Below are positions 20,890 through 60,295 of a DNA stretch of 64,000 bases, in pieces. The number at the start of each line of letters is the position of its first letter. Position 1 is the first letter of the stretch. The DNA comes from Octopus vulgaris. Its lineage: Eukaryota. The notes beneath the pieces were generated by a model that saw only the letters and a list, made by a program, of their open reading frames with translations, was not told the DNA's origin and did not search any database. The stretch covers positions 123,690,001-123,754,000 of the forward strand of contig OX597817.1 in NCBI GenBank assembly GCA_951406725.2. The letters are read 5' to 3'. The position numbers and the translations under genes are program-made.

Positions 20890-21300
20890 ATACCTCTAAA
20901 TACAATGTAAAGTATCTAGCAGCTACCCACTTTCTCAATAAAAGAAGTAATCTATAGAGCTAAAGTTTAGGTGGTTAATAGTGCTATATATTAAACATAT
21001 CAGAACCACAGAAGCACGATGGGACCCTACTGGTACAGAGAATGTTTTAAATAACCAGAGACTAGATCCTCAGTGAGTTTATCCAAACATATATGGCAAC
21101 TGAAAGATGTTGGTACAACCCCTTTCAAAATCGATTGGTTGACCTTAGAGACAACAAATCCATACAAATATGAGTCTTACCACCATTTCATGAAGTGTGC
21201 ATTATGTTTGAGAGAGAATCCCTTTATCCTGCTTCTGGACAAGTTGGCCTTAACCTGAAAATCTAAATTGTTTCAATTTTGCAGACATTCTTCCATATTT
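20890..21300 (+). pseudogene. Decayed PLE-type GIY-YIG endonuclease fragment
   Basis: EVIYRAKV...YIRTTEARW...SLSKHIWQLKD...IDW...PYKY...CALCLRE...CRH, read across frameshifts. Confidence 0.7.
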
Positions 21301-22193
21301 GGTTTTCAGTCTCTACACTTAAACCAAACCATTGATGCTCATCACTATTTCTCCCAACCACATATTGTAACAGATTTTAAAATTATTCTGAGTATGAAGG
21401 CAGCGAGCTGGCAGAATCATTAGCATGCTGGATGAAAAGCTTCACAGCAGTTTGTCTTTATGTTCTGAGTTCAAATTCTACTGAGGTCGACTTTACCTTT
21501 CATCATTTTGGGGCCAAAAAATTTAAGTACCAATGAAACACTGGAGTTGATGTAATTGACTAGTCCCTTCCCACAAAATTTCAGGCTTTGTGCCTAATGT
21601 AGAAAGGATCATTATTCTGAATATGTTCGTGATAGTCATACTTTTAATTGACTCCTTATAATCATCGCATTTAAGTCTCAGACAATATTTTTGGGGGGTT
21701 TTTATATAGCTTTTCATCGTTAATGTTTTAGGTTATACATATGGTTCTTTTACTTAGAAGAGTTTTAATTATTAGTCCTATTCGAAATTATTGTGCCAAC
21801 TTTGATTATTTTCCTTGTTCTCATACACTGTTTATCCACAATTTGTTTTCATTAACCACTTAAGTAAAATACATCTTTAGAGCACTTTATATAATTTCTC
21901 TATCTAATGTATACTTTCTAATTGCTTCTAGTTCCCTCTTATCTTATGTATAAATACCTATATATATACTAAATCCAAGCAGTCAATGTAACTAATAGTG
22001 TGTTAGGTCTTAGTACACATATTCTTTTCCAACATTACATTTTCATCTTTCTCCTCTTTCCTTTCTTTTACCCTATTTGCTGAAAAAGTATTTCCATTTT
22101 CTACTTCTGACTTTAGGAATTGCACCACACAAGAGATAAAATAAAAACAATTAATGGCACATTTTACATACAAAGTAAAATAAAATAGACAAT

Positions 22194-33099: not shown

Positions 33100-34560
33100 C
33101 CTCGTTCCAGTGGCATGTAAAAGTACCCACTACACTCTCGGAGTGGTTGGTGTTAGGATGGCATCCAGCTGGAGAAACTCTGCCAGATCAGATTGGAGCC
33201 TGGTGCAGCTATCTGGTCCGCCAGTCCTCAGTCAAATCGTCCAACCCATGCTAGCATGGAAAGCGGACATTAAATGATGATGATGATGATGATGATATAT
33301 ATACATATATATATATATATATTTGTATGTATATATAATCCACCGACTTCAGGTAAAACTTTAAACAAGTAAAATGTCAAACAAGTAAGATATCATACAT
33401 TGAATAAAGTGAATCCAATGTCATTGAATAAGTGGTATTTTAAAGAATAGCATTCAAATTTATTGGAAAAATTAGAATATGTGTATTGAACAGGAATGCA
33501 TGGAGCAGAGATCAAATGATTCTATTATTTAAAATCACATATCTAAAATACTTCATAGCTAATATTGGCATTGAGAATGTACAAGAACTGCAGAATGCTG
33601 TAACCTTCAGTTAGCATTAAGATAATCAGAACCAACCAGATATTTTGTCAGTTAAGTGAGGTAAAAGGGGAAAACCTTCAGGCAGCAGAAAGCCATAAAA
33701 CTGTCAGCAACCTTTAGTCTTATTCCATTCAGCTGAAGCAAAATTGTATTCAGTCATACTCCTAGACGTATACATATATGCACATATACACATATAAATA
33801 TATTCAAATTACATGTGTACAAACACACCCATATATAGATATATATCTATACCTATGGATATACACACAAATACACACCATACACTCTCTCACATGCACA
33901 TATATATGTACATATAAATATATACACATACGCACAGAGGTTTACACACACATATCATCATCATCATCATCATCATCGTTTAACGTCCGTTTTCCGCACT
34001 AGCACGGGTTGGACGGTTCGACCGGGGTCTGGGAAGCCAGGGGCTGCACCAGGCTCCAGTCTGATCTGGCAGAGTTTCTACAGCTGGATGCCCTTCCTAA
34101 TGCCAACCACTCCACGTATATATATATATGAATGTATACATATATATATACATACATGTGTACACACACACATATGCATACATATACAAGTATGCATATA
34201 CATACACATACAAATATATTCACTTGCATGCACCACATATATATTCACAATCATGTGCTCACACTCACATATTTACATACTCTCACAAAAATATGTAAAT
34301 ATATAAAATAATGATATACAAAGAAATCCTTGACAAAGGATAGAGGGGTTAAGAAGTTATACACTGAACTATCAAGTACTTAATTAGTTACAAAGTTTGC
34401 CAACAGATTTAATGAGTATACATTACAAGAAGTCTAATGACGCAATTTGACATATTGCTTAAATCATATTTCAGTGAGATGAATAAATTTAATTACGTTA
34501 CAAAGCATGGTTAAATAGAAGCTAAAAAGTTAAAGATAATTAGTAATTGTTTGTAGCATG

Positions 34561-35242
34561 TTAGATAACAGGTCTAAAGAATGAAAATCTGTTCTTAATG
34601 TTGCGTGAGCATTTCACCCTGAGTTCACTAGATTCTTTAAGGGTGTTACTTGAACATTTAAGTATTTCCCATAATTCAGTGCAGCAAAGCCCATACCTAT
34701 ATCTATTGTTTGAATGGGGTAATGCACATTTTATAATGCTCCATGTTATTTGGAAGCTATTTTTGTCTTTAATTACAAAATTCTTTTTTGAGTGATATAA
34801 CCTTAGCTTTATTACATTTATTAAATTTGCAAGTCATTGAACTGATGTAGGTAAATGTGGTTAGATTATTTCTTACATCACATCTATTAATAACATTTTT
34901 AGTGAGACATAAATAATTGAGAGGGCATAGAAGTTTATTGCTACAATTACATAATTCAGGAGATTTATGGATATCAGTACTATCAGTGTTATTTGAGGAT
35001 CACACAGAGTGATAATTATCATTAAACCCAATAGAATTATTCATATTATCCAGGGTTACTGAAGAGTCAATGGGGTTGTTATTAGTATTTGCACTTCGAT
35101 TGCTATGAGTTGCATAGTAATCATTTATATTAGAATCGTTTTGAATGTTATCAGGGTTGGTTTCATCATTATTAGGGTTAGAGTTTAAGTCATCATAGCC
35201 ATCACTAATGCATTTCTCAGATGATTCAGTACCTGTTTCCAT
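34561..35242 (-). pseudogene. Decayed GIY-YIG endonuclease frame with Asn-rich N-terminus and no RT
   Basis: ORF 35000-35242 continues in frame past one TGA into CNCSNKLLCPLNYLCLTKNVINRCDV...TYISSMTCKF. After a frameshift: IKDK...ITWSIIKCALPH...GLCCTE...SELRVKCSR, stop at 34561-34563. Confidence 0.75.
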
Positions 35243-35749
35243 TCATGTGCATTAACTACAGCATCAAAGCAGTTTAGCTTGTATTTCTAGCAATGTTTGT
35301 GTTTTTTAACACCCTAGTCACATTTATGACAATTATAATTCTCATTTTTGGTGAAACATTGCAACCAGCTGTTTATATTAATTTTATGTATATATGTTAC
35401 TGCATTACTGAATCATCTTCTAATATGGATATCGTAAAAGTATATACTAACAGAGAAGCAAGCCAAGGAAAGCCAAGATTGAGTGGGCTTAACTGATGAG
35501 GCAATGGAAATTGCTGAAATTGATGCCTGAATTAAGACTTCTCAATCAGCATTTTTCAGATGATTCAGTTCCCTAAATATATAGTGTATATGTTCTCATT
35601 CATGTGCATCAACTACAGCATTAGAGCATTTTACTCATATTTCTAGCAATGTGGGTGTTTCTTAATACTCCAGTCACATTTAGTGACAATTATAATTCTC
35701 TTTTTCGGTGAAATATTGTAACTTGCAGTTTATATTAATTTTATATATA
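35210..35749. repeat. Diverged direct repeats (35210-35392 and 35549-35749) flanking the hammerhead
   Basis: Both begin GCATTTYTCAGATGATTCAGT and end GTTTATATTAATTTTAT. Confidence 0.9.
35477..35547 (+). ncRNA. Type I hammerhead ribozyme fold (stem III and cleavage site decayed)
   Basis: Stem I GATTGAGTGGGCTTAA / TTAAGACTTCTCAATC, core CTGATGA (35493-35499), stem II GGCAAT-GGAA-ATTGCT, GAAA (35516-35519). Confidence 0.75.
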
Positions 35750-35764
35750 CATATACATACATAT

Positions 35765-36300
35765 AAGCAGGATAACAAAAGAAAAAACACTTGCAGACAA
35801 AGTTGACTCTAATGCAACCAATGTGCCAAAAGAATATTGGTGGGACTTAAAAAATTAAAACAGCTTCCATGTTTAAACACAACCATCCAGATATTTTTGT
35901 GTGGGACCACAATAAAAAGATATGGTCTGATTTGCAAATTGGCTGCCATCTGGACACCAATGTGATTAGAAAATTAGAAGAGAAAGAGGATATCTGTGAA
36001 CCATTGATAATAAGATTGCTAATCCAGTACTCGAGATATACTTTCAACTACATACTTATTATCATTGGAGCAACAGGATACATACCAACCCATCTGGAAT
36101 AAAGAATGGCTGAACTTGGGTTCTTGGGGACAGAATGCAAGTCTTTAATTCATACTCTACAAAAGATCACAGTATCTGGGACTATAAGAATATACAAATC
36201 CTTTAAGATTTAAAGTATTGTGAGCAAAACAAGATGTTTACTTTCACAACTTTGCTATAAAGCTAGAGGCCAGTCAAAATGAATTCCAAATTAAAAAGAG
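35765..36300 (+). mobile_element. REL-endonuclease LINE (R4/NeSL-like) 3' end
   Basis: EYWWDLKIKT...KHNHPDIFVWD...KLEEKED...IIIGATGYIP...LQKITVSGTIRI. Confidence 0.75.
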
Positions 36301-59202: not shown

Positions 59203-60295
59203 AGAATATGTATATGTACGTATATATATATATATATATAAATATGCATACACACATATATATACACATGTATATATATCAGTTAATATATGCAATATAA
59301 AGATACAAGCTTCTAATAGTTTCATGCATTGGAGAGGCGAGTTTCGGCAGGTTGTCATGCCTTGTATCTCTAAGCAATTTTTGGGCTCTCTTCATAGATT
59401 GGTGACAGAAGCATGTTATAAAAAGCAGTGTAGATTTACCTTTCTAATACATGAAACTATCAGCAGCTTGTATCTTAACACTGAGTGCATTAAATATTTA
59501 TCTCTCACTGGAAGGAGTACATTTTTTGCTGGTCTTACCTTAATGGATCAGCAAACTACATATGAATATATACATAATAGAGTATAGGAGCACTCCATTG
59601 ATTACAATGATGAGGGTCGCAACTGATATGATCAATGGAACAGCTTGCTCATGAACTAAACTTACAAGTGACTGAGCATTCCACAGACACATGTACACTT
59701 AACCTAGTTCTTAGGGAGGTTCAGCGTGACACAGAATGTGATGAGGCTGGCCTTTTCGAAGTACAGGTACTACTCATTTTTGCCAGCTGAGTGGACTGGA
59801 GTAATGTGAAATAAAGTGTCTTGCTCAAGGACAAAACGTGTCTCTGGGAATTGAACTCATGACCTTATGATCGTGAGCTGAATGCCCTAAGCACTAGGCC
59901 ACGTGCCTATACGTATTCACACACACACACACACACACACACATATGAGTAATATAAGATGTAAATTCAGAGAATCATACAGCTATCACAATCAGCTCCA
60001 CTTAAAGACTTTCATTATTTAGAGTTCACTAAATGAAGTATAAGTCATGCACTGGGATTGATGTTTTTCTTTCTCACATTTTCTTTCCATCTGTGTGTGT
60101 CCCTCTTTCTCAGAAAGAAATCAGTTATTGTAAGATCTGAGGAGAGATAGGCTCTACCAGATATAAAAATGTTCCAAGATTTTATATTTATCATGGCAAC
60201 TCGACAATTCCATTAAGGCAGGCAAAGGCAAAGGCATTATATTCTTTCTGTATTTGTTTATAAAATTCTGTAAATATATGTTAATGTATGTTTAG

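Follow-up and report, generated by a model that had tools for sequence, protein, structure and literature searches.

Hydra-clade Penelope-like elements (PLEs), together with non-LTR retrozymes, come closest, among described systems, to the locus analysed here. In the Hydra clade, the GIY-YIG endonuclease (EN) is C-terminal, is preceded by a CxCX5C linker, and lacks the CCHH motif, and the elements carry canonical hammerhead ribozymes and insert into (TA)n targets, according to the available portion of PMC8557442. Non-LTR retrozymes were described, in the available text of PMC7229834, as tandem units of 170–400 nt with type I hammerheads, and the accessible part of PMC4209133 gives retrozyme hammerheads a palindromic helix III. 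It was proposed, in the available part of a preprint, that retrozymes originated from the pLTRs of PLEs (bioRxiv 10.64898/2026.07.22.740005).

The window (the whole stretch of 64,000 nt that was analysed) is AT-rich, microsatellite-rich, animal-type DNA, and may resemble octopus genomes. Near the locus, a short interspersed repeat is present twice in inverted orientation, at 33160–33296 and 33957–34092 (84–96% alike), and an open stretch on the plus strand (35860–36200) may correspond to the terminal restriction-like endonuclease of a non-LTR retrotransposon. The first-pass annotation had proposed that a hammerhead ribozyme antisense to a stand-alone EN forms, with it, a small retroelement that is devoid of reverse transcriptase (RT). 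We hold with high confidence the identity and layout of the two parts of the locus, a dead composite in which a Hydra-clade EN fragment on the minus strand lies head-to-head with 1.6 retrozyme-like units on the plus strand. Both parts are of known kinds, and it is unlikely that the locus represents a novel type of mobile element. As read, it is ordinary retroelement debris; it is also a possible physical record of retrozyme and Hydra RNA being used in a single insertion, and such a record bears on the open proposal that Penelope-like enzymes mobilise retrozymes. Literature searching on octopus, hammerhead ribozymes, and Penelope led only to the Hydra paper (PMC8557442), and none of the texts returned, partly abstracts or excerpts, describes an EN element that lacks RT and has its hammerhead in antisense. 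For comparison, contigs from 4 of the 24 listed runs (X1, X5, X8, and X13), from four organisms, were aligned to the window at 80% likeness.

The minus-strand endonuclease

A phmmer search of the window frame against 1.84 billion representative proteins returned a single protein, P0001 (E = 1.9e-4), which led to 17 longer relatives, all of which (17/17) carry RT thumb motifs upstream of the CxC. The profile of these 17 RT-EN proteins matched two frames of the minus strand (iE 2e-5 and 9e-6), and the original identification of a Penelope-like GIY-YIG EN was upheld. The first frame (34772–34951), which is the one matched by P0001, contains the CxCX5C linker finger, CNC-x5-CPL at 34951, ahead of decayed GIY and YIG boxes, and ends with a stop at 34771. 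The second frame (34561–34830), also detected by tblastn with Hydra proteins, contains the C-terminal half of the EN, with the K-x-R, W-x-I, and LC-x2-E motifs, and the E-x4-C segment with the terminal Cys, and closes with a stop at 34563; a frameshift is located near 34830–34810. The ORF had been thought to run straight into the terminal motifs, which proved incorrect: it is the second frame that holds W-x-I, LC-x2-E, and E-x4-C, and 17 codons, corresponding to the T-x-LS-x-YIW helix of the Hydra profile, are absent near 34776. The lost helix carries residues that are invariant or nearly so across 15 Hydra proteins, which suggests that the nuclease is likely non-working. Of the GIY-YIG residue set, R and E are retained and N is lost. 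The GIY and YIG boxes have no pair of Cys residues between them, and in the CxxC/CxH region the terminal C is kept and the H is lost. The first Cys of the CxxC is changed, and base 34694 differs towards Cys in 2/2 contigs of X5. Pfam searches with three window pieces gave no GIY-YIG match and nothing relevant, whereas the relative P0017 matches PF01541.

From this motif set (CxCX5C, apparently no CCHH), the minus-strand ORF reads as a broken, 5′-truncated Hydra-clade Penelope-like EN. It had previously been labelled Naiad-type. Naiads resemble it in having a GIY-YIG PLE endonuclease and a preference for TA, but in the available portion of PMC8557442 their EN is N-terminal, with CCHH and the RT downstream, and canonical hammerheads are lacking, whereas the window EN ends in a stop and an untranslated region (UTR); the CxCX5C linker defines Hydra, and the label was therefore abandoned. 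The stand-alone ENs of Terminons are similar in being PLE-type ENs unfused to RT, but they retain CX2-5CxxC and CCHH and reside within giant Athena elements (PMC8557442, same portion), whereas the window EN has the Hydra motif set. With the Hydra clade, including Penelope-13_HM, the locus shares CxCX5C, the TA-rich site, probably also the absence of CCHH and a partly altered CxxC/CxH region, and 5′ joins in inverted orientation, from which an antisense hammerhead results (PMC8557442, as far as available; Craig et al. 2021). It differs in having no RT, in its long Asn-rich linker (which P0013, one of the relatives, also has), in the 17-codon deletion, and in having no recognisable sense hammerhead in its 3′ UTR, while the hammerhead that adjoins it is unmatched by the Hydra model (see below). 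The RT-EN profile found no RT in the window, as expected for a 5′-truncated copy; the first-pass annotation had stated that no RT lies upstream. TA/CA-rich tracts are present at both outer ends of the locus, in line with Hydra (TA)n insertion; a target-site duplication was not readable at the locus. A second, unrelated Hydra-type EN relic, located at 20941–21318 on the plus strand (iE 5e-14), keeps the LSKHIW helix and has neither RT nor hammerhead beside it.

The 3′ UTR of the relic (34310–34560), into which paralogous contigs reach as far as about 34441, ends at the TA/CA-rich tract and contains no significant hammerhead. A decayed sense hammerhead at 34481–34428, tempting by eye at 34474–34428, was not significant by shuffling (its score was reached in 111/300 shuffles), by its E value in the hammerhead model (0.41), or by its tail-box rank of 201. 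An inverted duplicate of the 3′ end was likewise not found, the score being reached by 9/100 shuffles.

Upstream of the finger, the frame continues through an Asn/Asp-rich linker of 86 codons (34952–35209; 38% N+D), which contains a TGA (35002–35000) and is cut at the junction with the plus-strand block. The open run of 80 codons that precedes the TGA exceeds chance expectation (1/2000 dinucleotide shuffles). In 16/18 of the relatives, the linker is 26–32 aa long, and in P0013 and its cluster mate P0020 a linker of 102 aa (43–44% N+D) separates the RT thumb from the CxC. Both are full-length RT-EN Hydra proteins of 803 aa, with an Asn-rich linker three times the usual length. Because these RT-bearing proteins have one, an Asn-rich stretch before the CxC is not proof of a stand-alone protein. 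P0013 matches the window EN over 50 aa at 48%, but no alignment was obtained between the two linkers. A protein search with an alignment of the window pieces and P0013 returned P0013 alone, among 8000 scored candidates of 441–2000 aa, and the Hydra alignment matched 0/58 candidates in viral contigs.

The minus-strand ATG (35240–35242) lies inside the first repeat of the plus-strand block and opens 157 codons with one TGA; it, the TGA, and the CNC were all found as first described. Such a frame could be that of a domesticated host gene, or of a selenoprotein with TGA read as selenocysteine, since some Naiads are selenoproteins (PMC8557442, available portion). This seems very improbable, given the frameshift and the lost helix, and given that the TGA falls within low-complexity linker sequence rather than at a Cys position. 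Moreover, base 35002 of the TGA differs in 3/3 X1, 3/3 X5, and 2 X8 contigs (in X13, only 2 of ~6), and the difference from the paralogs runs in the direction of CpG decay. The ATG itself is likely incidental. Its distance from the junction is 33 nt here and 46 nt in the family form, as read from loose contig ends; repeat 1 has lost 13 nt relative to that form, and because of this deletion the ATG is in frame only in the window copy. The equivalent position in the second repeat is 51 nt from the junction and comes with a stop.

The plus-strand hammerhead and its tandem family

The type I hammerhead on the plus strand (35477–35547) was identified from its layout, and consists of a CTGATGA core at 35493, a 6-bp stem II, the GAAA, and a stem I in which 14/16 positions are paired. 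This layout was the sole match across the 64 kb and occurred in none of 100 Markov simulations of the window; the layout first described, and its antisense orientation relative to the EN ORF, were both borne out. The fold z-score is only −1.7. Rfam gave no match at the gathering score over the window, and none of its eight weak matches was to a hammerhead family. Stem III and the cleavage triplet are decayed: U16.1 is absent, and the triplet reads G-A-A. Hammerheads need a U before the cleavage position. Because an A is found there instead, this copy would not cleave; the block contains no second complete hammerhead, and with the ORF also broken, the description of the copy as dead was correct.

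The hammerhead was initially viewed as lying between two direct repeats. The repeats exist (35210–35396 and 35549–35752, ~85% identity by self-comparison), but weaker similarity of repeat 2 extends back to the 3′ strand of the hammerhead's own stem I, and the block is therefore a partial tandem, not a ribozyme placed between separate repeats. Its order is repeat, spacer, hammerhead, repeat, amounting to 1.6 units of ~350 nt with a spacing of 339–357 nt. Repeat 1, the post-hammerhead tail of a unit, begins 17 nt after the cleavage position, just beyond the 16-nt stem I, and repeat 2, the second tail, ends at a TA-rich tract. A segment of 12–13 nt in the spacer (35397–35476), at 35407–35419, is complementary to 35219–35231 and 35558–35570 in the tails, and would close a long helix around the hammerhead.

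The family was found in all four organisms; in 4/4 runs, joints between tandem units were present and each site was covered by tens of contigs. Tail sites were covered, per run, by 22–47 contigs for one insertion and by 13–43 contigs for each listed loose end (20–43 in repeat 1), whereas EN and linker sites were covered by 1–8 contigs each; summed depths of the hammerhead block and the EN are ~40- to 100-fold apart, although depth is not copy number. After 35392, 21–29 contigs per run continue into spacer-like sequence (17/30 letters, mostly transitions). Joints from tail to hammerhead, connecting 35392 to 35488 and 35712 back to 35478, establish a tandem unit. At a loose end after 35523, seen in one run (X8, 15 contigs), the sequence continues into a stem III with a palindromic loop, and GUA stands as the triplet ahead of stem I. 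A type I hammerhead with an intact core and an NUH triplet is thus found in the family, in that run, and not in the window copy.

The tandem ~350-nt unit, together with the palindromic stem III and the GUA of other copies, fits a non-LTR retrozyme, and the abundant family is likely to be one. Like the metazoan non-LTR retrozymes of PMC7229834 and bioRxiv 10.64898/2026.07.22.740005 (available parts of both), the block has a type I hammerhead and a low-GC tandem unit of ~350 nt, and is abundant and non-coding. Unlike them, the window copy amounts to 1.6 units, has a single, decayed hammerhead, and is joined to an EN piece in antisense. The family is abundant and apparently unreported. An exact 29-nt tail pattern had no match in metagenome and viral contigs, and the unit folded as a circle showed no exceptional stability (z −0.5 to −1.1).

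Hammerheads and inverted joins in other Hydra loci

Hydra loci, the best 80 of 411 from metagenome contigs, formed 61 groups at 90%. A descriptor located a sense hammerhead 84–528 nt after the EN in 48/80 of them. A model built from 37 Hydra hammerheads gave 72 matches in the 80 loci (training sequences match by construction), 70 of which were sense and 2 antisense; both antisense matches were downstream of the EN. The same model recovered held-out Hydra hammerheads, and gave no match to the window hammerhead at an E value of 10. A Hydra hammerhead-plus-tail profile gave weak, non-significant matches elsewhere in the window, at 1928–1980 and 59446–59487 on the plus strand (E 0.2–0.4). One locus (L063) contains two sense hammerheads (1067–1112 and 1264–1309), 197 nt apart, downstream of a single Hydra EN.

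Inverted ORF pieces were located 5′ of the main copy in at least 4 of the 80 loci. In L045, an inverted EN piece of 121 nt adjoins a tail copy in sense, whose start lies just past stem I, 5 nt beyond the point of cleavage. The topology of this join is that of the window, with an inverted EN head-to-head with a post-hammerhead tail. The inverted piece of L045 comes from the same element, whereas the two parts in the window have no detectable similarity to each other. In the available portion of PMC8557442, the sole antisense case in the table is Penelope-13_HM, in which the hammerhead derives from a 5′ inverted copy.

The junction and its possible origins

The junction contains no TA tract or spacer, and the profile over the window indicates that the relic does not continue beyond 35752. 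Two paralogous linker alignments end just short of the junction, at 35201 and 35206. A joint between opposite strands, 35054/35159, was found in X1, X8, and X13 (3/4 runs) and belongs to another copy with a 5′ inversion of its own; its geometry would fit the copying of an EN-sense RNA. Among the contigs listed, in which 15 of 187 joints are covered, none spans the whole stretch. The gap in contig cover at 35213–35228 does not prove a unique junction, because even the abundant contigs of the tail leave it uncovered.

An RT-bearing copy of the window EN family was not seen among the contigs of the four runs. None of the eight listed paralogous EN contigs, which are the longest pieces only and whose ends can be TA tracts, projects past 35295 or reaches RT distance. 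Four EN contigs of 1.04–1.11 kb, probably from two loci, have projected left ends at 34181–34222 and right ends at 35228–35295, and same-locus contigs end nearby, at 35261–35263. One X5 paralog, at 83%, bridges the site of the deletion with 4 gap letters, indicating a common 17-codon deletion; the shortened EN was therefore copied at least once.

One possibility is that the locus represents a fixed unit, consisting of a ~1.4-kb EN cassette with an antisense hammerhead block (or of ~1.05 kb of EN only), amplified by RT in trans. If true, this would be a new element design, with nuclease cargo antisense to ribozyme RNA. The projection of the four contigs to nearly both ends of the window EN part is as such a unit would predict, as are the 0/8 contigs at RT distance and the copied deletion, although these contigs, being the longest pieces, may end at TA tracts. 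The linker is open in frame. Against a fixed unit, the family form of the repeat puts the ATG out of frame, the lost helix points to a nuclease that is likely dead, the paralogous linker alignments fall short of the junction, and the inversion joint of one paralog differs. No such protein was returned by phmmer (1.84 billion representatives) or by the P0013-alignment search (441–2000 aa). We consider a fixed unit unlikely, and it is doubtful that an RT-less Penelope derivative of fixed length, with its EN antisense to a retrozyme and the hammerhead strand as the mobile RNA, spread as a unit on borrowed RT. The earlier proposal of an RT-less element with its own nuclease is thus weakened rather than refuted: a 5′ inversion yields an antisense hammerhead in Penelope-13_HM, the topology recurs in L045, contigs per site number tens for the block and 1–8 for the EN, the ATG is in frame only through the 13-nt deletion, and the helix is lost in one paralog as well.

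Most likely, the locus is a one-off inverted composite insertion made by a Penelope-like RT-endonuclease acting in trans. We lean slightly towards a single event, with an RT-bearing parent for the EN. A one-off composite is favoured because the RT thumb is present in 17/17 relatives and an Asn-rich linker of similar length in 2/18; because 70/72 Hydra hammerheads are sense and both antisense ones lie downstream of the EN; because inverted 5′ joins occur in L045, in at least 4/80 loci, and in Penelope-13_HM; and because a paralog has its own inversion joint and the linker alignments stop at 35201 and 35206. It is weakened by the lack of an RT-bearing family copy among the contigs, none of the eight EN contigs passing 35295, by the presence of the 17-codon deletion in the 83% paralog, by the absence of a readable target-site duplication, by the failure of the Hydra model to match the hammerhead, and by the dissimilarity of the two window parts, in contrast to the same-element piece of L045.

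PAc, a PLE protein with a preference for AT-rich targets, is able to cleave and to extend both strands (PMC11167929, available portion). This activity, together with the TA-rich outer ends, supports a one-insertion model. In such an insertion, the enzyme would nick both strands of a TA-rich target. One nick would prime on the tail end (35752) of the ~350-nt repeat RNA, which would be copied back to just past the cleavage position (35210), while the other would prime on a Hydra RNA, and its 3′ UTR, EN, and part of the Asn-rich linker would be copied before synthesis stopped. Joining of the two 5′ ends would leave a hammerhead antisense to the EN as a by-product, and later decay would have removed the cleavage triplet and broken the ORF.

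Alternatively, the two parts may have inserted separately at one TA-rich spot, as a copy of the abundant retrozyme and a Hydra relic unrelated to it. The repeat is very abundant, other relics lie near in the window, the two parts are dissimilar, and the Hydra hammerhead model misses the hammerhead. Chance adjacency would nevertheless have to account for a junction free of TA tract and spacer, a relic that is not continued past 35752, and a join placed just past stem I, as in L045, and we regard it as improbable. The near match of the tail to a Hydra tail box, noticed post hoc, also argues against it. A GAGCACT box is present in 22/32 Hydra tails; in the 23 on which the profile was built, it follows the cleavage site by 52–74 nt. 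In repeat 2, a box with one mismatch lies at +92 (35622–35632) and ranked 10 of 127,898 window positions. A link between the retrozyme and Hydra is only hinted at by this box, and is weakened because the Hydra model misses the window hammerhead.

In the Hydra tails, the box forms part of a conserved hairpin, GCTC-N10-20-GAGCACT (22/32; L002, L007, L018, L039, L048, and others), which sometimes occurs twice. The available parts of the Hydra and retrozyme literature make no mention of this hairpin, which is possibly a protein-binding or RT-initiation signal.
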